Below, in pieces: positions 14,397-55,453 of a stretch of 64,000 nucleotides of DNA. Both the position numbers and the translations under genes were made by a program. Position 1 is the stretch's first letter. The number at the start of each line of letters is the position of its first letter. The notes beneath the pieces were generated by a model. That model was given only the letters and a program-made list of their open reading frames with translations. It did not search any database and had not been told where the DNA came from. Source of the DNA: Rickettsiales bacterium (GTDB taxonomy: Bacteria; Pseudomonadota; Alphaproteobacteria; Rs-D84); the NCBI GenBank assembly GCA_031283185.1, contig JAITCH010000010.1:63237-127236 (forward strand), read 5' to 3'.

Positions 14397-16231
14397 GCAG
14401 CGTCTGGTCGCCGCGCTTTTTTCCGCATATTTGGATCCAGGTCTTTTTTACGCAGGCGGATTATGTCCGGCGTTACCTCTACCAGTTCATCGTCTTGAAT
14501 ATATGATAATGCTTCTTCCAAAATAATTTTGCGTGGCGGTGCAAGGAATAGTTTTTCATCAGCCGTAACCGACCGCATATTGGTCAGTTCCTTGCCCTTG
14601 ACGGGGTTGACTTCCAGGTCGTTTTCTTTCGCGTGTTCACCGATAATCATTCCGTTATAAACCTGTGTGCCGTGTCCGATAAACAGAACTCCGCGCGGCT
14701 CTAAATTGTGAAGCGCGTATGTAACAGCCGTGCCGTTTTCCATTGAAACCAAGACGCCCGGGCGATAACTATCAATCGGCCCACGATAAGCATCAAAGCC
14801 CGAAAAGATTCGGTTCATAACGCCGGTGCCACGCGTGTCCGTGCGGAATTCTGATAAATATCCAATCATTCCGCGGCTGGGCGCAGAGAAGACGAGGCGG
14901 GTTTTTCCAACTCCGCTTGGTTTCATTTCGACCAGTGTTGCGCGCCGTTTGGAAAGTTTTTCTACGACCGCGCCGGAAAATTCATCATCAACATCAATGA
15001 CGATGTCTTCAATCGGTTCCAGCATATTTCCGTCTGCATCTTTTTGCATAATGACGCGCGGACGCGAAACGGATAATTCAAATCCTTCGCGCCGCATTGT
15101 TTCTATTAAAATGCCAAGTTGTAATTCGCCACGGCCGGAGACTTCAAAACTTTCATTGTTGGCGGATTGCGAAACGCGAAGGGCTATGTTGGTTTCTGCT
15201 TCCTTGAACAGCCGTTCGCCGATCATACGACTGGTCAGTTTTTTGCCGCCGGATTTTCCAGCCAGGGGCGAAGTGTTGACCGAGAAAGTCATTGATAATG
15301 TTGGCGGATCAATCGGCATTGCGGGGATTGGTTCTGAAACGCCGATGTCGCAAAGTGTGTCTGCCACCGTTGCCTTGGAAAATCCGGCGATGATGACTAT
15401 GTCGCCCGCGCTTGCGGATTCCAGGGATATTTTTTCTATTCCACGATGTTCAATTATTTTTGTAATTTTTGCGCGTTCAACGACTTCGCCTTTGGCGTTT
15501 ATTGCTTGCACTTGTTGGTTGACCTTGACCATTCCGGTTTCAATTCGGCCGGTTAGAATTCGCCCGACATACGGGTCGGCTTCCAGTGTGGTGGCCAGCA
15601 TTTTGAACGGGGCATTAGCATTGCATTGGTCTGCTCCGCGGCAGTCTGGCGCGGGCACATGGTCAACGATTAATTGGAATAGTGGTTCAAGTCCCTTGCG
15701 TTCATCATTCATATTGCGGACTGCCCAACCATCGCGTCCGACCGCATACATAAATGGAAAATCAAGTTGTGAATTTGTCGCGCCGAGTTTATCAAACAAA
15801 TCAAAAACTTCATTTAATACTTCATCCGGCCGAGCATCGCTTCTATCAACCTTATTTAGAATTACGATTGGATGCAGATTTAATTTTAATGCTTTGCCCA
15901 ACACAAATTTGGTTTGCGGCAGCGGACCTTCGGAAGAATCCACGAGCAGAACAACGCCGTCAACCATTGACAGGATTCGTTCAACTTCGCCGCCAAAGTC
16001 CGCGTGGCCTGGGGTGTCGATTATGTTGATTTTGTAGCCATTCCAAAGAATGGAAGTTGGCTTTGCGGAAATGGTTATACCGCGTTCGCGTTCCAAATCG
16101 CCGGAATCCATAACGCGTTCCGCGATTTTTTCATTCTCGCGGAATGTGCCTGCTTGGCGAAGCATATTGTCCACCAGTGTTGTTTTTCCATGATCGACAT
16201 GGGCGATAATTGCAATGTTTCTAATCTTCAT
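14393..16231 (-). CDS. typA: translational GTPase TypA/BipA
   Basis: G1 motif AHVDHGKTTL, DTPGHADF, and an EF-G-like domain architecture. Confidence 0.9.
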   Translation of the reverse strand: MKIRNIAIIAHVDHGKTTLVDNMLRQAGTFRENEKIAERVMDSGDLERERGITISAKPTSILWNGYKINIIDTPGHADFGGEVERILSMVDGVVLLVDSSEGPLPQTKFVLGKALKLNLHPIVILNKVDRSDARPDEVLNEVFDLFDKLGATNSQLDFPFMYAVGRDGWAVRNMNDERKGLEPLFQLIVDHVPAPDCRGADQCNANAPFKMLATTLEADPYVGRILTGRIETGMVKVNQQVQAINAKGEVVERAKITKIIEHRGIEKISLESASAGDIVIIAGFSKATVADTLCDIGVSEPIPAMPIDPPTLSMTFSVNTSPLAGKSGGKKLTSRMIGERLFKEAETNIALRVSQSANNESFEVSGRGELQLGILIETMRREGFELSVSRPRVIMQKDADGNMLEPIEDIVIDVDDEFSGAVVEKLSKRRATLVEMKPSGVGKTRLVFSAPSRGMIGYLSEFRTDTRGTGVMNRIFSGFDAYRGPIDSYRPGVLVSMENGTAVTYALHNLEPRGVLFIGHGTQVYNGMIIGEHAKENDLEVNPVKGKELTNMRSVTADEKLFLAPPRKIILEEALSYIQDDELVEVTPDIIRLRKKDLDPNMRKKARRPDAA

Positions 16232-26389: not shown

Positions 26390-26450
26390 TCCTTGTCCCC
26401 CTTTGTCGCGCCGTAGCAAAGCGAAGGCGGATAATGGGTGGGTAAAATAA

Positions 26451-26482
26451 GTTATTCCGGGGCTTGACCCCGGAATCTTGTC
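26451..26482. repeat. REP/RPE-like 32-bp palindromic element (GTTATTCCGGGGCTTGACCCCGGAATCTTGTC)
   Basis: One of six copies of the GTCATYCCSGGGCTTGACCCSGGRATCTYG family. Confidence 0.8.
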
Positions 26483-29599: not shown

Positions 29600-29627
29600 T
29601 TGACAAACGGAGGCAGTGTGCTATATT
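29600..29627 (+). promoter_or_regulatory. promoter TTGACA-N16-TATATT for the sRNA candidate
   Basis: Near-consensus hexamers read from the sequence. Confidence 0.5.
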
Positions 29628-29633
29628 AATGCT

Positions 29634-29834
29634 GTCTGGGGGGAAACTTCCAGCCAGATTCCTTGGGTCACCAGACTCCCTCCTACATTCTCTCTCCTCT
29701 GGCCCCAAGGAACCAAGATTTTGCCGCATTTCATTTACGCGCGGCGCAGAGCTTAAAGCATTCTGTTTCTCCTTTCCTTCCTCCTTCATTTGGAATGCTT
29801 TGGTCCCCCGGATAAAACCGGGGGAAGTTTTTTA
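29634..29834 (+). ncRNA. candidate ~200-nt CU-rich small RNA with its own promoter and intrinsic terminator (CCCCCGG-ATAAAA-CCGGGGG + T6)
   Basis: Delimited by a promoter and a terminator, with no ORF. The pyrimidine-rich tracts CUCCCUCCUAC and CUCCUUUCCUUCCUCCUUC resemble anti-Shine-Dalgarno seed regions. Confidence 0.45.
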
Positions 29835-29837
29835 TCT

Positions 29838-29866
29838 TGCAAACTGATTGTGCTGACATTAATATC
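29838..29866 (+). promoter_or_regulatory. promoter TTGCAA-N17-TAATAT for tRNA-Leu
   Basis: Hexamers lie 14 nt upstream of the tRNA-Leu 5' end. Confidence 0.55.
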
Positions 29867-29880
29867 AATGGGCTTAAATG

Positions 29881-43474: not shown

Positions 43475-44077
43475 TTAAAAATTCCACGAAACTCCTAATG
43501 CATAAAAGTCATATACATAATTCATATCGCCAGTGTCGCCGTTGGAAAAATGTTGCATTATTAATTCCAAGTTCCAAGAATCTGTCATACGCCATCCGGC
43601 AACCATTTTGAAAGGCAGAATGAATTTTGTGTTCAGGCGAGCGTTCTGTTTCCCTTGAATGGCGATACCGATTCCGGCACCAAGATATGTGCGTTGGGTC
43701 AGTGCGAATCCGACTTCTTGGGTCAGCACGGCGATTTCATTGCCATATTCTTGCCAGTCGGTGTGTCCAGTCCAAACGGCGTGCTTGCCGTAGTTGTGAT
43801 GACCGAATCCCAGGGTTTTGGTGAAGCCGATTGTTTGCCGACCTGGCAGACGAAAGAAGGTGTTTGGTTGGCTGTATGAAGCGGCAATCATATAATATGG
43901 AACCGGGACATCCAGGTGTTTGAAGAGGATGAGTTCGGCGGAGTCAAAGCCTTGCCCAATGGCGAGTCCCAGTTGATTTTGTTTATCGCCAAAGAAAGGA
44001 TTGAATTTCGTCCCTTCGGTTTCCGCGTTTGCTGCGCCGCATAAAATTGCAAAACATAAAATTATTTTCTTAATCAT
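43475..44077 (-). CDS. PagL-like outer-membrane lipid A deacylase family protein (paralog 1)
   Basis: Signal peptide, YSQPNTFFRLPGRQ, a His-x-Ser catalytic-like motif QHFSNGD, and a C-terminal ...GVSWNF. Confidence 0.55.
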   Translation of the reverse strand: MIKKIILCFAILCGAANAETEGTKFNPFFGDKQNQLGLAIGQGFDSAELILFKHLDVPVPYYMIAASYSQPNTFFRLPGRQTIGFTKTLGFGHHNYGKHAVWTGHTDWQEYGNEIAVLTQEVGFALTQRTYLGAGIGIAIQGKQNARLNTKFILPFKMVAGWRMTDSWNLELIMQHFSNGDTGDMNYVYDFYALGVSWNF

Positions 44078-44322: not shown

Positions 44323-44562
44323 CTAAAAATGTTTTTTAGAAAATAGCCTGCCATTTCCAGTTTTCAAATATGCCTCAAATTTTTCTGCCTTGTCTCTATT
44401 TTCAAATGCAAAATAGTTTTTAATTTTCCAAGGCTTGAATTTGTTTGTATGTATTGAGCATCCTTTGTTATGTTCATTAAGTCGTTTTTTCAGGTCGTCA
44501 GTTTGTCCCACATAAAATCTGTCTGGATTGCTTATGCTTTGTAAGATATATACATAAAACAT
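44323..44562 (-). CDS. GIY-YIG nuclease family protein (80 aa)
   Basis: MFYVYILQS...RFYVGQTDDLKKRLNEHN. Confidence 0.7.
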   Translation of the reverse strand: MFYVYILQSISNPDRFYVGQTDDLKKRLNEHNKGCSIHTNKFKPWKIKNYFAFENRDKAEKFEAYLKTGNGRLFSKKHF

Positions 44563-44673
44563 ATTTAATCCCTAATTGCCCGCTTTCGTCCTTCGGACGA
44601 TAGCGCGGCATCCGCTTCTCTAACACTCCGCCGCGATTGTGCCCAATCGCGCCGTAGCGTAAGCGAAGGCGGA

Positions 44674-44747
44674 TGGTTGGGGCAACTGGATTCGAACCAA
44701 TATAGTCAGAATCAGAATCTGAAGTCCTACCATTAGACGATGCCCCA
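44674..44747 (-). tRNA. tRNA-Gln (anticodon CTG), CCA encoded
   Basis: The reverse complement folds as tRNA. It has a U1:A72 pair like E. coli tRNA-Gln, anticodon loop TTCTGAT and T-loop TTCGAAT. Confidence 0.85.
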
Positions 44748-45465: not shown

Positions 45466-45822
45466 TTAAAACTCCATCAACCTCACTTGCCCGGGGTTGT
45501 ATTGGGACGGCGGAGTGCTGAAAAGCCAATACATTCCAACGAGGAATACTGCACTGACGCCGATGGCAATTACGGCATTATCTTTAATCCAACTGCTTTT
45601 TTGTGATTTGGGTTTATATGCTGTTGTTTGAGGGCAGTAGTAAATGTCCCCATTTTTTTCGGAGCATTGAACATAATTGGTTAGTGGAGTATTACATTGA
45701 ACTTTGTCTGGCTGTTGACCCGGCGCGGTGGGAACCATGCAGTAATTAACGGCATTTGCAGGGGGGGGCGTGAACACCGATATAAGTCCGAAAACCGATA
45801 AAATTGCTAATAATTTCTTCAT
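45466..45822 (-). CDS. small exported Cys-containing protein with a C-terminal TM segment (118 aa)
   Basis: Signal peptide MKKLLAILSVFGLISVFT. It contains the G8/C8 tract at 45762-45769, which encodes PPP. Confidence 0.45.
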   Translation of the reverse strand: MKKLLAILSVFGLISVFTPPPANAVNYCMVPTAPGQQPDKVQCNTPLTNYVQCSEKNGDIYYCPQTTAYKPKSQKSSWIKDNAVIAIGVSAVFLVGMYWLFSTPPSQYNPGQVRLMEF

Positions 45823-45887
45823 AAATGAACTTTCTCATAAATGTCGGTATAGAGTCAATACAAAAATTGCCCGCCACCCCTTTCCTC

Positions 45888-45915
45888 TTGACAAAACGCA
45901 AATACTCGCTACAAT
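45888..45915 (+). promoter_or_regulatory. promoter TTGACA-N16-TACAAT, 7 nt before the ATG (leaderless)
   Basis: Hexamers with the upstream TTTCCTC motif shared by the promoters at 46590 and 48248. Confidence 0.5.
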
Positions 45916-45922
45916 CCCGCTT

Positions 45923-46573
45923 ATGATAAAAAAGACTCCGACTATTTTAATGCGATTTAACCGCTGGCGCGATATAGACGAATGCCTAACCGACACGCAT
46001 TTCTTTGACCCGAAATATCCGTCCATTGGAAAGGATATTTTGGTGGTTGGTGGTGGCGACAGCACATATAGCACATTCGGATATTTTGATTTTAATTGGA
46101 CGAATATAGACCTGAACATCCCGGACGGATATTTCCAAATACCTTGGGTCAAAAGTATCAGGGCTGATTTCATAACGCATTTGGAATTTAATCCTACCGG
46201 GTATGACGAGATTTTGTCCTGGTATGCTTTGCCGTTGTATTCGCCAACTTTTGCATCTGCGTGGTATTTTTATCTGAAAGCGATGAGTCTTTTGCGTCCC
46301 GGCGGACGGCTGCGTGTGGGCGGTGTGCGCCCCGAAGATTATGCGGAATCCAGGAATTCATACCTAAGGAATTCGGATGCGCCGGAAAAGATTGTTCGTG
46401 CGCGGCAAGGGGCGTTGGCGACCCTTGCGAATTGGGGTGCAGAGGTCAAGGAATATAAATATGCGGAAATTATCACGAAACCCCGGTCGGCATCGCTCTT
46501 TAACCACCAGGTTGACGGCGAACTTGGTCGTATGCGGCTTCATATCGCGGATTATAAATTGCAGGTCAAATAG
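45923..46573 (+). CDS. class I SAM-dependent methyltransferase-like protein
   Basis: Rossmann GxGxG motif ILVVGGGDS, and LRPGGRL. Confidence 0.45.
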   Translation: MIKKTPTILMRFNRWRDIDECLTDTHFFDPKYPSIGKDILVVGGGDSTYSTFGYFDFNWTNIDLNIPDGYFQIPWVKSIRADFITHLEFNPTGYDEILSWYALPLYSPTFASAWYFYLKAMSLLRPGGRLRVGGVRPEDYAESRNSYLRNSDAPEKIVRARQGALATLANWGAEVKEYKYAEIITKPRSASLFNHQVDGELGRMRLHIADYKLQVK

Positions 46574-46589
46574 CCCAACAAATTTCCAC

Positions 46590-46617
46590 TTGACAAAATA
46601 AATGTCTGTTCTATAAT
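46590..46617 (+). promoter_or_regulatory. promoter TTGACA-N16-TATAAT
   Basis: Near-consensus hexamers. An AAGGAG RBS and an ATG follow. Confidence 0.5.
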
Positions 46618-46651
46618 ACGCCTAACAATCGCAACCAAGGAGCGACCAAAA

Positions 46652-47173
46652 ATGATGATACAAGAAATAACAAGATATATATTAGTCCCTAGCCAAATTC
46701 TGGTCATCGGTCCTGACGGACAGAAAACCTTGGACGGCAATAGTCAATATTATCATCTGCCGGAATACCAGTTTGATAAATACGATAATGATCTTATACA
46801 AAACAAGTTCAACGCGATTGTCAAATTGGGGAAAGAATATAAGATAAATATCGGTCAGTTCGCGCTCTTCCCGGTGAAATATGAAACAAAAGGGTGTGAC
46901 CGATGCGTGGGCTTGGATATTCCAGAGGCATATGACTTTTCCAAGGCGAAAGAATGGTGTCGCGTGATGTGCGTGCCGTTAGAGGTCAGTGGTAAAGAAC
47001 TAAAAGCACTAAAATCCGGTGCCTTGTTTGGCGGCTGCCACAGCTCGATTGACCGCTTTGCGAAGGACGCCGCCGTTGATTTTGTGAACGCTGTTGCGGA
47101 CACGGATGAGACAGATTTCCGAAAAGCATTGCGCCTCGCTCTCGCGTTTGTGTCAAAAGCGAGATCGAAATAA
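46652..47173 (+). CDS. hypothetical protein (173 aa)
   Basis: ORF with a strong promoter and an AAGGAG RBS. Confidence 0.5.
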   Translation: MMIQEITRYILVPSQILVIGPDGQKTLDGNSQYYHLPEYQFDKYDNDLIQNKFNAIVKLGKEYKINIGQFALFPVKYETKGCDRCVGLDIPEAYDFSKAKEWCRVMCVPLEVSGKELKALKSGALFGGCHSSIDRFAKDAAVDFVNAVADTDETDFRKALRLALAFVSKARSK

Positions 47174-47217
47174 CGAGATAACAACCCTACGAAACCTAAA
47201 TAATAAGGAATGTAAAA

Positions 47218-47402
47218 TGATTTATAAGATAATATATGAATTTGGCTCGGTTGGGAGTCAGGAGCTTGACTTCGATGATGATCATTCAACTATGAGTATT
47301 GTCGGGCAGCAAATGCCATTTGATCCCGGGGATTTCCAGGACGCGGCGCGCTACTTCGGTAGAGATATTATGTCAAGCTTGATACAACAACGAATGAGAT
47401 AA
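47218..47402 (+). CDS. small acidic hypothetical protein (61 aa)
   Basis: An AAGGAATG RBS precedes the ATG. Confidence 0.4.
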
Positions 47403-47490
47403 CGGAAATCGGTTTGGGTGTGCGGGGGCTTTTGTGCCCCCGCCCTTTTTTTATTTGACATTCAATTGATTCCATTACAAGGTATGGCGC

Positions 47491-47544
47491 AAATTCTCCT
47501 CCTGTGGAGGAGTCCGGGCGAAGCCCGGGAGGTGGGTCTACCAT
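47491..47544. repeat. 5'-half copy of the composite repeat (subfamily with GGTGGGTCTACC core), directly upstream of the DUF559 gene
   Basis: AAATTCTCCTCCTGTGGAGGAGTCCGGGCGAAGCCCGGGAGGTGGGTCTACCAT, identical over 56 bp to 48002-48057. Confidence 0.8.
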
Positions 47545-47564
47545 TAATCCTTGGGCAACAAACA

Positions 47565-47978
47565 ATGTCAATAGTTATTCAATACAATCCAAATCTTCGC
47601 AACAATGCAAAAGCATTACGCAAGGCGGGTATATTATCCGAAATCCTTCTATGGGATCAGATAAAGCGAGGTCAAATAAATGGTCTTGATTTTGACCGAC
47701 AACGAATCATGGGAAATTATATAGTGGATTTCTGCTGCCCAGATACAGGTGTAGTTATAGAGATTGACGGACATTCGCATGACTTTAAGGAACTGCACGA
47801 TACCAAGCGTGAGGAATATCTAAAAAGCCTGGGTCTTGAAACTATACATATCGCGGATATTGATGTTAAGCAAAGTTTAGATGGTGTTGTTGGAATGTTA
47901 AAGGCGCATCCATTTTTGCAAAATCCAATTAAAGATAGAAAATGTGTTTTTATACATAATTCTCCTCTTGTGAATTAG
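47565..47978 (+). CDS. DUF559-family endonuclease-like protein (Vsr/restriction-endonuclease-like fold)
   Basis: ...GNYIVDFCCPDTGVVIEIDGHSHD...EYLKSLGLETIH, the typical DUF559 pattern. Confidence 0.65.
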   Translation: MSIVIQYNPNLRNNAKALRKAGILSEILLWDQIKRGQINGLDFDRQRIMGNYIVDFCCPDTGVVIEIDGHSHDFKELHDTKREEYLKSLGLETIHIADIDVKQSLDGVVGMLKAHPFLQNPIKDRKCVFIHNSPLVN

Positions 47979-48001
47979 GATTTGGTAGTGTGGCACTGAC
48001 T

Positions 48002-48128
48002 AAATTCTCCTCCTGTGGAGGAGTCCGGGCGAAGCCCGGGAGGTGGGTCTACCATATCTATGAAACGCAAGCCTAACCCGGAGACCCACCCCGTCCGCTT
48101 CGCGTCCACCCCTCCACCGGAGGGGAAT
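48002..48128. repeat. full composite repeat copy (GGTGGGTCT...AGACCCACC core subfamily), immediately downstream of the DUF559 gene
   Basis: Its 5' half is identical to 47491-47544. The 3' half ends CCCCTCCACCGGAGGGGAATT, as in the other copies. Confidence 0.8.
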
Positions 48129-48247
48129 TGGGCCCCGGAACGAGTTGGATTTCAAGTGGCAACGCAGAAATCTTAAGAGTTCCAGGCGAACATCCCTCAA
48201 CATCCACCCGCTCCATAACCCCCTCGCGCGCCACAATAACTTTCCGC

Positions 48248-48275
48248 TTGACAAAACTAATTAATGGGGTATAAT
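48248..48275 (+). promoter_or_regulatory. promoter TTGACA-N16-TATAAT
   Basis: Near-consensus hexamers. The -10 overlaps the ATG proposed in the ORF track, so the start is moved to 48307. Confidence 0.5.
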
Positions 48276-48306
48276 GACCCGGTCAATAACCCAAAAGGGG
48301 GAGAAA

Positions 48307-48729
48307 ATGGCAACTTTTACAGAAACAGAATTGATTCTGGAATGGGAATATAACGAAGAATATCAGTATGCATTTGAACGAATTCGGGAATACAACGCGT
48401 CCGAGCAGGGCGGCGAAAAACTTAAGGCTGATGAACGGCACGATTTGTTGGAACAAATCGCAAAAATGCAGGAAATTGACCTTCGTCGCTATAAAATGGC
48501 TATGATCGGCAAGTTTTATGTGGAATTAAAGGGGGCGTTGGAAGAAGTTATAGATGCCCGCCTTGCAATTCGTGGCGCAAGCGCGATTTTGGGGGCTGCA
48601 ACCAAGCCGGATGATGTCGCGCGAGAGGTTGTATCGCGCCGCGCTGTTGATATTACCCGCAAATTGGATAAAAACGAGCGGGAATTGGCGAAAAAAATAG
48701 CAGAATACTTGTCAGGCCTTGCGCGGTAA
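48307..48729 (+). CDS. hypothetical protein (140 aa)
   Basis: An AGGGGGAG RBS lies upstream of the ATG at 48307. Confidence 0.5.
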   Translation: MATFTETELILEWEYNEEYQYAFERIREYNASEQGGEKLKADERHDLLEQIAKMQEIDLRRYKMAMIGKFYVELKGALEEVIDARLAIRGASAILGAATKPDDVAREVVSRRAVDITRKLDKNERELAKKIAEYLSGLAR

Positions 48730-48736
48730 TAGGGGC

Positions 48737-48765
48737 TTGACGATTTAACCCGGGCAATATATAAT
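48737..48765 (+). promoter_or_regulatory. promoter TTGACG-N17-TATAAT
   Basis: Near-consensus hexamers. Confidence 0.5.
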
Positions 48766-48790
48766 GCCCCGGCAAAACAAAGGAAACGAA

Positions 48791-49225
48791 GTGATATATT
48801 TAGAAGAACATTATAGCAACGCGACTAAGTGGATTGCGTTTTATCAGTACATTACCTGGGTCAAAAAGTTAAATTTGACTGCCGAAGAATTGGCGGATTA
48901 TGACAATCTGACTAACATTGTGGATAATTGTCCGGCCGCAACTCGGCAAGAGGCTTTTCGTGAGCACGAAGACGCGTTTCATGGCTATTCGGACGAGGAT
49001 TTAAAGCGCGAGCGGTTTTTGCGGCAGAAATTTATTGGGATTTCTGAGACATTGAAGACGATGCCGGAAACTCAGCGTAGATTGGCAAACTCAAGGTCGC
49101 CTGAATCGCAGGCTCAGGCTGCGGCGATGATCCGGGAGATGGCGGAACTTGAAAAAACGCGCGATGGCTTGTTGAAAGAGTTAAATTCTTTGTGCGTCGC
49201 CACCCACGCCGCCCAGACCTGGTAA
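48791..49225 (+). CDS. hypothetical protein (start probably the GTG at 48791; the ORF-track ATG at 48764 overlaps the -10)
   Basis: An AAAGGAAA RBS lies 6 nt upstream of the GTG. Confidence 0.4.
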   Translation: MIYLEEHYSNATKWIAFYQYITWVKKLNLTAEELADYDNLTNIVDNCPAATRQEAFREHEDAFHGYSDEDLKRERFLRQKFIGISETLKTMPETQRRLANSRSPESQAQAAAMIREMAELEKTRDGLLKELNSLCVATHAAQTW

Positions 49226-49268
49226 AAATAAAAATTTCCGCCCCCGATTCCGGGGGCAGGAAAATTAT

Positions 49269-51074
49269 TTACTTCAACACTTTCTCAATTTCATCCGCAG
49301 TCAGGGTTTCGCGTTTCAGTAGTGCCTCGGCCAATTTTTTCATCTTTGGCTTGTTCTTGCCTAAAACTGCGCTGGCAATTTTATATGCCGAATCAATAAG
49401 CGACTTTATTTCCGCATCCACCAGTTCGGCAGTTTTATCCGACACATTTTCGCGCCGGGTTTGGATCCCCCACCCGCCCATTGTTTCATTGACGGCAATC
49501 ATACCCAGTTTCGGCGACAATCCCGCGCTGACAACGGCGTGCCGCGCCAGATTGGTCGCGGCGGCAATGTCGGCGGTCGCGCCGGTGGTGATTTTGTCTT
49601 TGCCGATGAATATTTCTTCGCTTGCCCGTCCGGCCATATAAATCGCCAAATTCGCACGAATTTCGGCTAAATTCATAGAGTTCTTGTCATCAACCGGCAG
49701 ATGCTGCACCATCCCGAGTGCCCGTCCGCGCGGGATGATTGTGGCTTTCAGAATCGGGTCGGAAACGCCCTTGAAATGCACGGACAGCATTGCGTGGCCG
49801 GCTTCGTGATAAGCGGCAATTTTGCGGTCATTTTCGGACATCCGCATTGATTTTTCCGGCCCCATCAGGACTTTGTCGCGCGCCATATCCAAATCCGCGG
49901 CGGACACAGCGGTTGACTTGCGCCGGACGGCGATTAACGCGGCTTCATTCATAAGATTTTCCAATTCCGCGCCGGAAAATCCGGGTGTTCCGCGTGCGGC
50001 AATATCTAGGTCAACTGACTTGTCCAACTTTAATTTCGCAGCATAAATTTTCAGAATATCTAACCGACCCGACCGATTCGGCAGGTCAATATGCACTTGG
50101 CGATCAAATCGCCCCGGGCGAAGTAACGCGCCGTCCAGTATGTCAGGGCGATTGGTTGCGGCGATTACGATTACGCCGGAGTTGTTGGCAAATCCGTCCA
50201 TTTCAATCAGCAGTTGGTTCAGGGTTTGTTCGCGGTCGTGGTCGGACATTGAACCCTTGCCGCGCTTTTGTCCGATTGCGTCAATTTCGTCTATGAACAG
50301 GATGCAGGGCGAGTTGGACTTTGCCAGTTTGAACAGGTCGCGGACTTTGCTGACCCCCAGGCCGACCAGGATGCCGGAAAATTCAGAGCCGGAAGACGCA
50401 AAGAACGGAACTTTTGCCTCGCCGGCGATTGCGCGTGCGAGCAAGGTTTTGCCAGTGCCGGGCGCGCCGGATAACAGGACGCCGCGGGGTAGTCTTGCCC
50501 CCAGTTTTGTGAAATCTGACGGCTTTTTAAGGAAATCTATCAGTTCCTCAACTTCTTTTTTTGCATCATCAATGCCCGCTACATCCTTGAAAGTAGTCGC
50601 TTTTTTCTTTTTCTCGCCATTTGCGCGCATAACTACCATTTGTGGCATTCCGGGGATTCCGCCGCCTGCCATCATTTTTGGCCCCCGCAGTATCAGATAT
50701 ATGAACAGGATACCGATGATAAGCGGGAAAAACATAGCCACTTTCTCCCAAAAACTGGTGGACGAATCGATTGATATTGATACGCCGGACTTGCCCAACT
50801 GGGTCAGGGTGGCGGGGTCATAAATTATTTCAGCATTGTAAGTTCCGCCGTCTGTCAGATCGCCGGTTGCTTCGTTTGCGCGGATTGTGGCTGTCTTGAT
50901 TTTACCTGCGGACGCGGCATCCATAAAGCCGGTAAAGTTCATCTCTGTGGTCTTTGGGGCTTCAACTTTCGCCGGGCTAGATTTACTGCCGATATATATG
51001 TCCCGCGCGGCGAGTGCTGCGATTATGATGAACAGCAGTAAAAATTTATTTGCCTTAAACTTTTTCATTTTCAA
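49269..51074 (-). CDS. ftsH: ATP-dependent zinc metalloprotease FtsH
   Basis: Walker A GPPGTGKT, SRH, HEAGH zinc motif, and an N-terminal TM segment. Confidence 0.95.
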   Translation of the reverse strand: MKMKKFKANKFLLLFIIIAALAARDIYIGSKSSPAKVEAPKTTEMNFTGFMDAASAGKIKTATIRANEATGDLTDGGTYNAEIIYDPATLTQLGKSGVSISIDSSTSFWEKVAMFFPLIIGILFIYLILRGPKMMAGGGIPGMPQMVVMRANGEKKKKATTFKDVAGIDDAKKEVEELIDFLKKPSDFTKLGARLPRGVLLSGAPGTGKTLLARAIAGEAKVPFFASSGSEFSGILVGLGVSKVRDLFKLAKSNSPCILFIDEIDAIGQKRGKGSMSDHDREQTLNQLLIEMDGFANNSGVIVIAATNRPDILDGALLRPGRFDRQVHIDLPNRSGRLDILKIYAAKLKLDKSVDLDIAARGTPGFSGAELENLMNEAALIAVRRKSTAVSAADLDMARDKVLMGPEKSMRMSENDRKIAAYHEAGHAMLSVHFKGVSDPILKATIIPRGRALGMVQHLPVDDKNSMNLAEIRANLAIYMAGRASEEIFIGKDKITTGATADIAAATNLARHAVVSAGLSPKLGMIAVNETMGGWGIQTRRENVSDKTAELVDAEIKSLIDSAYKIASAVLGKNKPKMKKLAEALLKRETLTADEIEKVLK

Positions 51075-51963
51075 TCCTTATAATGTTTCCTTTTCTTTTC
51101 ACGATGCAATGCGCGAGGGTTATGGTAGCATCCTTTTCCAATTCTTTCAATGCCCGTTGCACGGAATCAAGTCGTGGGGGGTATGCGTCCCCGCCGACCT
51201 GCTGTAAAATGCGGCTGAAAAATTTCAACTTCATTTCCTCTGGCAGGTTTTCAAGCGTTGAATAATTGCCGTCAAAATTTAATAATAATTTTTCAATCTC
51301 GCCTTCGGACGCATCGCGCGCGCGCGCCAACGAAGAAATTGCCAACAACAATCGCTCGTCCGAAATCCCTAACTTTTCCGCCAATATCCCGCGATTTTTC
51401 CGAACACGAACGCGCAGAAATTGTTCGTCGTCATTCATCGGGTCGTCAACAAAATCAACCGAATTTTTAACACACCAATCACGAAGTTCCGCACGGCGCA
51501 CTTCCAGCAGCGGACGCGCGATTGTGATTCCGCCGCGCTCTGAAATTGGGCGAAGTCCGCCAAGTCCAAACAGACCTGATCCGCGTCCCAGGTTCATTAA
51601 AAAGGTTTCAATGTTGTCATCGGCGTGATGTGCGGTCATAAGAATTCCGATGTTGTTCGCCCGGCAAAAATCAAGCATCAAATTGTATCGCGCTTCACGC
51701 GCGGCTTCTTCAACGCCGGTGTCGGGCTTGTCGCCGACCCATTTTAATGTGTGATGTTCCAACCCCAATTTTTTCGCAACGCGTCCGACCATTTCTGCTT
51801 CTGCCGCGCTCTCATTCCGTAATCCGTGGTCAATGGTCAAAACTACGGGCTTGTAATCCGCGCACCAATGCATCAAAGCCATACTATCTGCGCCGCCGGA
51901 AACAGCGACAGCGATGCGCGCCTTGGGCAGTGCATTTATAAATGAAGTGAACTTATTATTCAT
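51055..51963 (-). CDS. tilS: tRNA(Ile)-lysidine synthetase
   Basis: PP-loop SGGADS. The tilS-ftsH order is conserved in other bacteria. Confidence 0.85.
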   Translation of the reverse strand: MNNKFTSFINALPKARIAVAVSGGADSMALMHWCADYKPVVLTIDHGLRNESAAEAEMVGRVAKKLGLEHHTLKWVGDKPDTGVEEAAREARYNLMLDFCRANNIGILMTAHHADDNIETFLMNLGRGSGLFGLGGLRPISERGGITIARPLLEVRRAELRDWCVKNSVDFVDDPMNDDEQFLRVRVRKNRGILAEKLGISDERLLLAISSLARARDASEGEIEKLLLNFDGNYSTLENLPEEMKLKFFSRILQQVGGDAYPPRLDSVQRALKELEKDATITLAHCIVKRKGNIIRIENEKV

Positions 51964-52044
51964 AGTCTGAAAGTATTAGCACCCTTTGATTGGAATTTCA
52001 ATGTCAAATATGGTATAGTTTGTTATTGAAACAGGGAGCGGATT

Positions 52045-52605
52045 ATGGCGGACAAAAGGTCAATGGCTGTGTATTGCGGGCATAAGATGGGTGGCAGTCC
52101 AGAGTATAAAAAGGATGCCGAGCGTCTAGGCACGCTGATGGCGAAAAATTGTATTCGTCTGGTGTATGGCGGCGGGTCGCTGGGCTTGATGGGCGTGGTG
52201 GCTGGCGCGGCGAAAAAGGCCAAGGGCGAAGTTATCGGCATTACGACTCAGCATGTTATAAATTTGCAAGAGCCATTGTTGGAAGGCATAGAGTTCGAGA
52301 TAAAGGGCGGTCTGTCAGAGCGCAAGCGCAGGATGTTTGAATTGTCCGATGCGTTTTGCATTTTGCCTGGCGGACTTGGGACGCTGGACGAGTTGGTAGA
52401 AATTATGGTTATGCAACAGGTGCATGAAAGCAGTTTGCCGATATATTTTCTAAATACGAACGGCTATTGGAACATAATGGGGCGGGTGATGGGGCATATG
52501 CAGCGGGAAGGTTTTCTAAGTGATTTAACACAATTTAATATGCATATTATGGACACGCCCGAAGACATAATTAAAACCTATAAATCCCGTTTCTGGACAG
52601 ACTAG
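52045..52605 (+). CDS. LOG-family protein (cytokinin riboside 5'-monophosphate phosphoribohydrolase-like, TIGR00730)
   Basis: PGGLGTLDEL and GGGSLGLMG motifs. Confidence 0.8.
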   Translation: MADKRSMAVYCGHKMGGSPEYKKDAERLGTLMAKNCIRLVYGGGSLGLMGVVAGAAKKAKGEVIGITTQHVINLQEPLLEGIEFEIKGGLSERKRRMFELSDAFCILPGGLGTLDELVEIMVMQQVHESSLPIYFLNTNGYWNIMGRVMGHMQREGFLSDLTQFNMHIMDTPEDIIKTYKSRFWTD

Positions 52606-52694
52606 CAACTAATTCCCCTAAGCGGGCGGGGTAGTTTTTCAATCAAGAATATCTTCCGATTTTATTTGCGCGTTGTGTGTGCGTAAATAATATA

Positions 52695-53270
52695 ATGAAA
52701 AAATTATTATTTCTTATCTGCACTTTACACTTTCCATTCTCCGCCTTGGGTGCGAATCCTATGCTTGGGGACAATCAGAATTCCATCCGCATTGAAGGCG
52801 TGAATATGGTTGATTGGTATGCGCGGGACATTCGGGTTTTTTATCTCAGTTATGCACAGCCGAATATTTTTTTTCGTTTGCCTGGTCAGCGGAATTTACA
52901 AATGGTTTATATCAGCGGTCGGACGAAATATAGCCCGGAATACAGACCTGGGCGATTGCATTCTGTGCAAATGGTGAATGGAGAAACTAGTCGGGATGTA
53001 TCGCAATTTGCGTGGGGCTTGACGCAGGATGTGGTGTTTTTATCTGGCTGGGGATTTTATATGGGCGCGGGGATTGGGCCTTTTGTAAAGGAGTATAAAA
53101 ATGATTATATCGGGACAAAGTTCATAATGGGCGAGCGTTTTTTTGCAGGTTATAGATTGAATAATAGTTTCAATTTGGAATTGGTGGCGCACCATTTTTC
53201 CAATGGACATCTCAGCGCGATGAACAAGGGTCTGGACGGCTTTGGTCTTGGCATTGCCTGGAATTTTTAA
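52695..53270 (+). CDS. PagL-like lipid A deacylase family protein (paralog 2)
   Basis: YAQPNIFFRLPGQRN, HHFSNGH, and a C-terminal GIAWNF. Colinear with the copy at 43475-44077. Confidence 0.55.
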   Translation: MKKLLFLICTLHFPFSALGANPMLGDNQNSIRIEGVNMVDWYARDIRVFYLSYAQPNIFFRLPGQRNLQMVYISGRTKYSPEYRPGRLHSVQMVNGETSRDVSQFAWGLTQDVVFLSGWGFYMGAGIGPFVKEYKNDYIGTKFIMGERFFAGYRLNNSFNLELVAHHFSNGHLSAMNKGLDGFGLGIAWNF

Positions 53271-53283
53271 GGAGTAAAAACAA

Positions 53284-53856
53284 ATGAGAAAAAACATACT
53301 TATACTTTTGGCTGCGATGCTGATAATTGGTGTTGCATCGGTGGCGCGCGGGGCGCGGGAAAATCCATTGTTTGGGGATACGCAAAGCCAGTTTGGACTT
53401 AATGCGGGACATGGTGTTGGCGGCGGGAATATCTGGCGGATGGTTCCGTTTAACGATTGGCGCATAGAGCCGTTTGGAGCGTATTGGGCGGAATATAGCC
53501 AGCCGTTCGAGTTTTTTCGTCTTCCTGCGCGGCAGACTTTGCACGCGGGGATGTTCGCTGGGTATGAAGATATGTCCCGGAATTATACCGAGCCATTTTT
53601 AGGTCTTTCGTGGGATGTAGTGCCGCTTAGTTGGCGCGGAGCGTATGTTGGCGCGGGGCTTGGGGTTTATATAAAGCCGACTTTTCGTGGGCGTCAGGAT
53701 TCGTTGTTGATGTTCGGGGAGAAGTTGTTTGCTGGGTATAGGATAAGCGCGGCGTGGTCGGTAGAATTATGGACGCGGCATTTTGATAGTGGTGGATTGA
53801 CACCGATTAATGGGGGCTATAATTTCTTTGGTCTGTCTGCATTGTATAACTTTTAA
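53284..53856 (+). CDS. PagL-like family protein (paralog 3, His-x-Ser motif altered to RHFDSGG)
   Basis: YSQPFEFFRLPARQT, and a C-terminal LSALYNF. Confidence 0.5.
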   Translation: MRKNILILLAAMLIIGVASVARGARENPLFGDTQSQFGLNAGHGVGGGNIWRMVPFNDWRIEPFGAYWAEYSQPFEFFRLPARQTLHAGMFAGYEDMSRNYTEPFLGLSWDVVPLSWRGAYVGAGLGVYIKPTFRGRQDSLLMFGEKLFAGYRISAAWSVELWTRHFDSGGLTPINGGYNFFGLSALYNF

Positions 53857-53923
53857 TTTGTCTTTTTTTATGATATAATACCCGTGAGAGAGAAGTAGGA
53901 AACTGCTCATAAAGGAACATATT

Positions 53924-55342
53924 ATGCTTAAATTTGCTAAAATTTTTGGTGCTGTGTGTGGGGTGCTTGTTGTTGCTGGTGGCGCGAATGCTGCTGCGAC
54001 AGAGGCTGATTCTTCGGAACAGGTTATACAGACCACGGGCGGCGCGCAGAATATCGTAATTAGGGTCAAGGTTCGTTCAAAGTCGTCAGAATCTGGCACG
54101 GCGACCACTGCGGGCACTGCGGCGGCATCGTCAAAGCCTGTGCGTCGTAAGTTGAAATCTGGACCAGATAAATGGATTTATGAAAAGCCGAAACCGGTAG
54201 AGGTAAAGCAGGATGTGATAATTGACGGCAAGAATTCGGCAAAGAATTATGAATATGATTTAGAGCCGATTGATTGGGAGGATGACGAACAGGAATTGCC
54301 ACCTTCTCCAAAGCCGAGGGCAGTGGGCGAATGGCGGACGATAAGTGTAGATACGAATTTGGCGAATCCGTTTTTCCAACCACAGCAGGGCAGATTTACA
54401 TTTGATATAGATGCGAGACAGACAAATCATTCATTCAAATTCAAGGTTAAGGATGCTTATACGCCTAGTGTAGTGTATCCAGCGGGCGCTTCTAGTGTGA
54501 ATTTGGAAGGTAAAAAGTTTGGTTTTGATAATACTCAATCTCAGTATTTGGGACGAATTACATATGGTATTACAGATGCGTTAGAGATAAATGGAACGGT
54601 CGCTGGTTATGATCAGAGGTTTGTGTATCAAAATCGTTCGTTTGCTCTTGATTCAACCTTGGCGTTGGCAAATCCGCCGCATGATCTTACGAATGCTGGC
54701 AGTGGGTTGGAATCATGGGGGCTTGGTGTTGCGTGGCGCGTATATGATTATAACGAAGTTTTGTTCCAGGTGCGCGGTGAATACAGGCAGTTGCAGTATG
54801 AAAAAGCATCCGAGGTTCATCTTGGTGTGCAGGGCGGTATCGTTAATGGGCGCAGCACATTTTATGGACGATTGGGTCTGTATTTGTGGAATAATGAACT
54901 GGATGGATATGGATATGGGTTTGGATATGGGGCTACGGATTTTCCAGAAAACTTGTGGGAAAAGGTGTTGTTTGAAACTGACAACAAGCATCCGATTTAT
55001 GTGGAGGGGACAGCCGGTATCTTTACTGCGTTGAACGATAGTGTGTCGCTGGATGTCAATACCAGTTTGGCAGATTTAAGTTGGCGTAGTGTTTGGAGCA
55101 TTGGCAGTCAGTTGGCGTTCCAGCCTGTGGATGCATTTATGTTTATGCTATACGGGAGTTATAATCTGTATGATAGTTCCGCTGGTGTCAGCACTTCTCC
55201 CGATGATAATCAGTTAGTGTTATGGTCAAATATGTCTCCGCAGTATGGTTCTGACCGGGTTGGTTTCCGTCCTGTGAGCGGCATCAATGTTTCCGCCCCG
55301 CGCGAATTCACCTTCGGAGCCGGAATAAAGGTCTTGTTCTAA
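53924..55342 (+). CDS. hypothetical outer-membrane protein (472 aa, porin-like, C-terminal ...KVLF)
   Basis: Signal peptide and a C-terminal Phe. Confidence 0.5.
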   Translation: MLKFAKIFGAVCGVLVVAGGANAAATEADSSEQVIQTTGGAQNIVIRVKVRSKSSESGTATTAGTAAASSKPVRRKLKSGPDKWIYEKPKPVEVKQDVIIDGKNSAKNYEYDLEPIDWEDDEQELPPSPKPRAVGEWRTISVDTNLANPFFQPQQGRFTFDIDARQTNHSFKFKVKDAYTPSVVYPAGASSVNLEGKKFGFDNTQSQYLGRITYGITDALEINGTVAGYDQRFVYQNRSFALDSTLALANPPHDLTNAGSGLESWGLGVAWRVYDYNEVLFQVRGEYRQLQYEKASEVHLGVQGGIVNGRSTFYGRLGLYLWNNELDGYGYGFGYGATDFPENLWEKVLFETDNKHPIYVEGTAGIFTALNDSVSLDVNTSLADLSWRSVWSIGSQLAFQPVDAFMFMLYGSYNLYDSSAGVSTSPDDNQLVLWSNMSPQYGSDRVGFRPVSGINVSAPREFTFGAGIKVLF

Positions 55343-55346
55343 TAGC

Positions 55347-55453
55347 GGCGGGTGGGGGTCTCCCGACCCCCACCCGAACATTTTACAAAAATTGCTTTTG
55401 CAATTTTTGTCATTCCCGCGAAGGCGGGAATCTCAGATTGTAAAATGCAAAAT
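55347..55453. repeat. composite repeat family B copy: GGGTGGGGGTCTCCCGACCCCCACCC hairpin, a 10-bp-arm palindrome spacer, and GTCATTCCCGCGAAGGCGGGAATCTCAGATTGTAAAATGCAAAAT
   Basis: Matches 2898-2970, 3326-3406 and 29117-29194. The repeat supplies the ATG/5' region of the downstream OMP gene. Confidence 0.8.

Follow-up and report, generated by a model that had tools for sequence, protein, structure and literature searches.

Extra sequence around the −35 box of a strong bacterial promoter can be read against several described arrangements. In the repressor-controlled consensus promoters of phages, plasmids and mobile modules, the operator overlaps the −35 box. UP elements are A/T-rich tracts located between positions −40 and −60, and promoters that depend on activators usually have a poor −35 box. 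In alphaproteobacteria, the sigma-70 consensus is CTTGAC-N17-CTATAT (PMC2873474). Furthermore, similar promoter sequences may recur within one genome as putative mobile promoters, a class that requires promoter regions to share 80% identity or more across 50 nucleotides (nt) or more (Matus-Garcia et al. 2012, PMC3488235). Here, we describe a 16-nt block that overlaps the −35 boxes of three promoters (P1–P3) in a cluster of six plus-strand genes (A–F), which occupies 45.8–49.3 kb of a 64-kb stretch of DNA from a Rickettsiales bacterium metagenome-assembled genome (MAG). We refer to this whole stretch as the window; motif and promoter counts refer to it, and its proteins carry the MAG locus tags LBB23_03330 onwards.

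Promoters were scored by their number of matches, out of 12, to TTGACA-N16-18-TATAAT. An earlier note, made from the letters of this DNA alone, had listed four near-perfect sigma70 promoters in the cluster, and all four stand, at the correct coordinates (the starts of their −35 hexamers; see the table). P2 and P3 are the only 12/12 sites in the window. What sets P1–P3 apart is the sequence around the −35 hexamer. The 16-mer TTTCCNCTTGACAAAA has exactly three matches in the window, all on the plus strand, and still three when up to 2 mismatches are allowed, where 0.33 would be expected and 1 of 100 shuffled sequences reached 3. In every copy, the −35 hexamer is separated by 16 nt from a TAYAAT box. 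The three sites lie directly ahead of genes A, B and E, respectively, with the blocks sitting 35–66 nt upstream of the gene starts.

The block spans about −42 to −27 and consists of TTTCC-n-C, the TTGACA hexamer and AAA. Every pair of copies is identical at 15 of 16 positions, the single free position being T, A or G in the three copies. Outside the block, this similarity stops abruptly: pairwise, the upstream 30 nt share 5–10 positions and the remaining 13 nt of the spacer share 3–5, which is background. Alignments of the leaders and upstream flanks of P1–P4 were no better than those of shuffled sequences. The proteins encoded downstream are also mutually unrelated (all-against-all BLASTP, E > 2 for every pair); the idea that E and F are paralogues was rejected for lack of similarity.

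Near-consensus promoters as such are common in this genome. In the window, 17 sites score at least 11/12 versus 1.3 expected (about 13-fold), and 13 of these lie outside the cluster. Among them are sites directly upstream of serS (seryl-tRNA synthetase), tRNA-His, an acyl-CoA synthetase gene, a Stealth-family gene, glycosyltransferase genes and the thioredoxin-like gene. The earlier note's claim that chromosomal housekeeping genes do not usually have such promoters is therefore false for this genome. The cluster is nonetheless promoter-dense, since four of its six genes have a promoter of at least 11/12, versus roughly one gene in ten elsewhere in the window. For comparison, we used 335 kb of related loci (L001–L016, L018 and L054) from 18 related species, chosen by FtsH synteny. 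The closest genomes in the species collection are those of gut alphaproteobacteria (Candidatus Enterousia and other MAGs), with FtsH identities of 55–58%, and synteny with these relatives is limited to a three-gene block of a LOG-family gene, tilS and ftsH. In the 335 kb, near-consensus sites are not enriched (15 versus 12.7 expected). Enrichment in the window and not in the relatives makes consensus-like promoters a trait not of the wider group but of this genome, which apparently depends on promoters that are unusually close to consensus. CTTGAC is 2.5-fold enriched in the window, which, together with the C preceding TTGAC, fits the alphaproteobacterial consensus (PMC2873474).

The extension, in contrast, is peculiar to the cluster. 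Counting the nine extra positions (TTTCCnC plus AAA), P1–P3 match at all nine, versus a mean of 2.66 and a maximum of 5 in 53 other promoter-like sites of the window (random expectation, 2.31). Among the 14 other strong promoters, tRNA-His and serS included, the mean is 2.5–2.7 of nine versus 2.3 at random; these promoters have a pyrimidine (mostly C) before the hexamer and otherwise no flanking preference. The earlier note had allowed that the motif might simply be the common promoter form, and within these 64 kb it is not. No copy of the block with a correctly placed −10 box was found in the 335 kb of the 18 related species.

We tentatively favor, at somewhat less than an even chance, the reading that the block is a selected cis-element overlapping the −35 box that co-regulates three transcription units, probably as an operator. 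P1–P3 would be functional sigma-70-type (RpoD) promoters and P4 a plainer one, and together they would drive four short transcription units of lineage-restricted orphans: A (leaderless), B–C, E and F. A sequence-specific DNA-binding factor would cover the −35 region of P1–P3, so that A, B–C and E are switched together. The core promoters being perfect as they are, we infer from the sequence that this factor, if it exists, is more likely to repress than to activate transcription. The sharp boundaries of the block and its perfect conservation, with one degenerate position, point to selection on a binding surface and not to recent duplication. Several points weigh against an operator. The block shows no clear dyad symmetry or second half-site, and thus no classical dimeric operator is visible; no DNA-binding family match was found among the six cluster genes, with only part of the window genes scanned; the motif was scanned in 64 kb and may be commoner elsewhere, for example upstream of the two paralogues of gene B (see below); and with n = 3 copies, selection is not cleanly separable from an old common origin.

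The first alternative is that RNA polymerase itself contacts TTTCCnC and AAA, through sigma region 4, the C-terminal domain of the alpha subunit (alpha-CTD) or the spacer geometry, which would make P1–P3 maximal, constitutive promoters with no dedicated regulator. This would suit core hexamers that are perfect or nearly so and a spacer of identical length in all three promoters. It would also suit the results of scans with the 16-mer plus −10 box, which gave 23 matches in metagenomes and 1 in viral sequences; these are single copies in unrelated organisms at about 12 distinct loci, some before tRNA genes, and no family emerged from either scan. However, the other strong promoters lack the extension, which makes a generic preference of RNA polymerase less likely than a specific factor. 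Neither is the block A/T-rich in the manner of a canonical UP element. We consider an intrinsic strength element unlikely. The earlier note had suggested a common activator site or UP-like element. An UP element fits poorly, as the three regions from −43 to −72 share nothing beyond the background given above and those of P1 and P3 are GC-rich, and a common activator site is possible but unlikely before perfect −35 and −10 boxes. DnaA box, CtrA, LexA, sigma-32 and extracytoplasmic function (ECF)-type readings were dropped because of their poor fit, by eye, to the respective consensus sequences.

Common descent would explain the similarity historically, with no role for it other than as a promoter: promoter propagation or gene conversion within the locus could have placed copies of a short promoter segment in front of newly arisen or acquired orphan genes. 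Three copies within 2.4 kb, on the same strand and upstream of non-homologous genes, agree with such a history, as does a genome rich in short repeats, some with −35-like hexamers; promoter reuse is moreover documented (PMC3488235). However, shared flanks should still be recognizable after recent copying, and here they are at background identity like the spacer; after copying long ago, TTTCC and AAA should have decayed if selection did not maintain them. The best 50-nt windows among the promoters match at 30/50, 31/50 and 34/50 positions (60–68%), under the 80% used to define putative mobile promoters. We consider shared ancestry on its own improbable.

Returning to the favored cis-element, a more specific version, which we regard as doubtful, would make the 16-mer an operator bound by a DNA-binding factor not yet known, which governs a small, private regulon of orphan genes, possibly including the two B paralogues. 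If such a regulon exists, the cluster would represent coordinated, switchable lineage-specific proteins (e.g. host- or niche-interaction factors) instead of loose hypotheticals. If the block is regulatory at all, it would join A, B, C, E and perhaps F, five proteins whose functions are unknown, in one co-regulated unit. This would provide a handle on the orphan genes of an uncultivated alphaproteobacterial lineage, as well as a strong promoter, possibly a switchable one, that could be used directly in such organisms. Although the pattern is real and not random, it is small and local, and it does not challenge the current view of bacterial transcription.

The coordinates of the promoters, genes and neighboring elements are collected below. 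Part of the cluster is covered by an independent assembly: a 7.2-kb Logan contig (run SRR14710906) is 100% identical to window positions 48146–55377, which include P3, E, P4 and F.

Table. Features of the gene cluster and related elements, in window coordinates.
Feature	Position	Strand	Details
Block copy 1	45881–45896	+	TTTCCTCTTGACAAAA; −35 TTGACA at 45888–45893
P1 −10 box	45910–45915	+	TACAAT; 16-nt spacer; TTGACA-16-TACAAT, 11/12; 7 nt before gene A ATG
Gene A	45923–46573	+	216 aa; MDR2685773.1, LBB23_03330; possible divergent Rossmann S-adenosylmethionine (SAM)-binding fold, spermidine synthase- or methyltransferase-like
Block copy 2	46583–46598	+	TTTCCACTTGACAAAA; −35 at 46590–46595; starts 10 nt past gene A stop
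P2 −10 box	46612–46617	+	TATAAT; TTGACA-16-TATAAT, 12/12
Gene B	46652–47173	+	173 aa; Shine-Dalgarno AAGGAG at 46637–46642; orphan family
Gene C	47217–47402	+	61 aa; acidic, isoelectric point (pI) 4.3; no promoter between B and C
Intrinsic terminator	47422–47443	+	8 GC pairs, then T-run; ends B–C unit
DUF559 cassette	47491–48055	+	Gene D at 47565–47978, 137 aa, GC 0.37, between perfect 54-nt direct repeats
Block copy 3	48241–48256	+	TTTCCGCTTGACAAAA; −35 at 48248–48253
P3 −10 box	48270–48275	+	TATAAT; TTGACA-16-TATAAT, 12/12
Gene E	48307–48729	+	140 aa; Shine-Dalgarno GGGGGAG; strict orphan
P4	48737–48765	+	TTGACG-17-TATAAT, 11/12; starts 8 nt past E stop; without TTTCC/AAA extension
Gene F	48791–49225	+	144 aa; GTG start; Shine-Dalgarno AAGGAAA; strict orphan
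Terminator hairpin	49238–49259	−	9 pairs, 8 GC; called on the minus strand, ending ftsH; 13 nt past F stop; no plus-strand call in scan
REP-like copies	~5206, 10455, 31818, 35327, 35401, 43414, 44788, 47491, 48002, 48082, 57819, 62972		

The earlier note had placed six genes between the thioredoxin-like gene and ftsH. Genes A–F are indeed present, while a seventh, minus-strand gene (45466–45822), encoding a 118-aa secreted or membrane protein, lies between A and the gene for the thioredoxin/glutaredoxin-like protein (CPHC motif), which is also on the minus strand. To the right, ftsH and tilS are convergent with the cluster. Three PagL-like lipid A deacylase paralogues are encoded within 10 kb (43475–44077, 52677–53270 and 53284–53856), two of them in tandem. 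No known RNA family was found in the island.

The distances from the promoters to the genes differ. From the end of the −10 box to the start codon there are 7 nt for A, 34 nt for B, 31 nt for E and 25 nt for F, with Shine-Dalgarno sequences in B, E and F. The short distance of gene A predicts a leaderless mRNA, consistent with what the earlier note had proposed for the first promoter; the start codon is the same as in the database protein P0004 (216 aa). That note had also observed that, in two cases, the −10 box overlaps the ATG suggested by the open reading frame (ORF) track, and the ATGs at 48274 and 48764 do overlap TATAATG. The actual starts of E and F are those in the table, each with its Shine-Dalgarno sequence and matching the database entries P0005 (140 aa) and P0006 (144 aa). 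Gene C is predicted to be co-transcribed with B. Because the hairpin at the end of the cluster follows the F stop so closely, it probably ends the E–F unit as well as ftsH.

Genes A, B, E and F are restricted to this lineage: for E and F there is no match but the protein itself, the only kin of B are paralogues within its own MAG, and A has one distant relative. In a word-indexed search, the only protein-database match of A was itself. A tblastn search of the related loci gave one distant relative of A, an ORF with 38% identity over ~100 aa in L016, a sheep-colon alphaproteobacterial MAG. There, the ORF (15036–15780) follows ftsH at a distance of 3.3 kb, with the two genes oriented relative to each other as in the window. 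Its likely ATG is located 5 nt after a TATATT box, and the leaderless arrangement may be conserved in the gene A family. The methyltransferase-like label that A had been given finds weak, fold-level support in a two-sequence profile of A and the L016 ORF, which matched spermidine synthases (E = 7e-4) and a SAM-methyltransferase (E = 0.04), with VVGGGD aligned to VVGGGD; it gains none from Pfam, where matches stayed below threshold. The single-sequence structure model of A had a pLDDT (per-residue model confidence) of 35, too low for use.

Gene B has two paralogues (P0002 and P0003; 56% and 36% identity), with the locus tags LBB23_00815 and LBB23_01100 in the MAG, and the family was found nowhere else. 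Both paralogues carry ~55 extra residues just after the shared MIQ-type N-terminus, which the window copy lacks. A structure model of B (pLDDT 73; pTM, the global fold score, 0.72) had no fold match in the PDB. E and F gave only self-matches in protein databases; the search for F was exhaustive, with HMMER run against 1.8 billion representative proteins. Pfam, NCBIfam, PHROGs and PADLOC returned nothing for A, B, C, E or F (for C, family libraries only), apart from a weak PHROG match of F, and sequence searches of the PDB gave no match for A alone, the B family, E or F. The match of F (residues 68–122, E = 0.0028) is to a phage nucleoside triphosphate pyrophosphohydrolase (MazG-like), and F has several acidic, EXXE-like stretches. 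Gene C is acidic, as the earlier note had described it.

The identification of gene D as DUF559 is secure (Pfam PF04480, E = 4.6e-25, 88.1 bits versus a cut-off of 20.6). It differs from the other genes in composition, with a GC content of 0.37 and a GC content at third codon positions (GC3) of 0.29, versus about 0.5 in its neighbors. The perfect 54-nt direct repeats flanking it (47491–47544 and 48002–48055) are followed by a diverged inverted copy (48082–48130). They belong to a genome-wide family of double-hairpin, REP (repetitive extragenic palindromic)-like intergenic repeats. The DUF559 cassette lacks the promoter motif and interrupts the orphan-gene cluster, and it looks like a separate unit that was inserted, or duplicated within a REP-like element, not long ago and so split this cluster. 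The REP-like repeats have the form AATTCCCCTCC..GGAGGGG, a second GC hairpin and GGTGG, and several copies score as terminator-like. The independent Logan assembly breaks at precisely the DUF559 cassette.

A second repeat family bears on P4, whose GGGGCTTGAC resembles the CTTGAC-bearing palindromic repeat of this genome. This repeat, CCGGGGCTTGACCCCGG(G/A)ATCTTGCC, occurs at window positions 26447, 39580, 40525, 60744, 61809 and 63524, with a −35-like TTGACC in its loop; P4 (GGGGCTTGACG) resembles it. At 26464, the repeat supplies the −35 box of the 11/12 promoter of the Stealth-family gene, so this family can donate promoter parts. Another 11/12 promoter is located between tRNA-Cys and tRNA-Leu (29600–29880). 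The ~245 nt downstream of it are unannotated, with no Rfam family above threshold, and may represent either an extended leader of tRNA-Leu or a small RNA not yet known.

The earlier note had taken the consensus promoters as typical of phage-, plasmid- or island-derived modules, a view the data do not support. Searches of phage and plasmid collections and viral contigs gave no DNA or protein matches, PHROGs and PADLOC gave none supporting it beyond DUF559, and no recognizable integrase is encoded among the six genes. The trinucleotide distance of the island is at the 55th percentile of equal-sized windows, and its GC3 of 0.45–0.55 is like that of the neighbors; only DUF559 deviates. Next to tilS–ftsH, none of the six genes except A was found in the 18 related species, and synteny is lost beyond three genes; at such FtsH identities, these relatives are too distant for the lack of the genes to say much. 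A stand-alone gene for a 79-aa GIY-YIG nuclease-domain protein (44323–44747) adjoins tRNA-Gln(CTG), 1.1 kb left of the cluster. The relatives have no conserved tRNA beside ftsH that would mark tRNA-Gln as an island attachment site. As near-consensus promoters are the usual form in this window, they do not indicate foreign DNA here, which is a caution for readings based on sequence alone. A foreign module bringing its own consensus promoters is therefore very improbable: the orphan genes absent beside ftsH in the relatives, the nearby tRNA-Gln with its GIY-YIG gene and a promoter density ~6-fold that of the rest of the window speak for it, but the native composition, the lack of phage, plasmid or defense-system homologues and the A homologue at the same position relative to ftsH in L016 speak against it.

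Compared with known systems, the promoters of the cluster resemble sigma-70 (RpoD) and alphaproteobacterial promoters in their CTTGACA −35 region, 16–17-nt spacer and TATAAT or TACAAT −10 box directly upstream of gene starts, and the C before TTGAC is common to P1–P3 and 8 of the 14 other strong window promoters. P1–P3 depart from CTTGAC-N17-CTATAT (PMC2873474) in having an E. coli-type TATAAT −10 box and a spacer of 16 instead of 17 nt, and from the other promoters of this genome in flanking the hexamer with an invariant TTTCCn on its upstream side and AAA on its downstream side. Like putative mobile promoters, they place similar promoter sequence before non-homologous genes in one genome, but the shared unit is a 16-nt block plus −10 box, with identity over 50 nt below that definition. 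The conserved bases at about −42 to −36 occupy the positions at which alpha-CTD or a class II activator would touch the DNA; the block differs from UP elements and class II activator sites in having no A/T-rich tract and a perfect −35 box. Unlike at repressor-controlled consensus promoters, no dyad-symmetric operator is visible here, the cluster has no repressor-like gene, and no phage or plasmid homology was found. With these promoters, P1–P3 nonetheless share very strong cores, extra conserved sequence over the −35 box and its repetition at adjacent transcription units.

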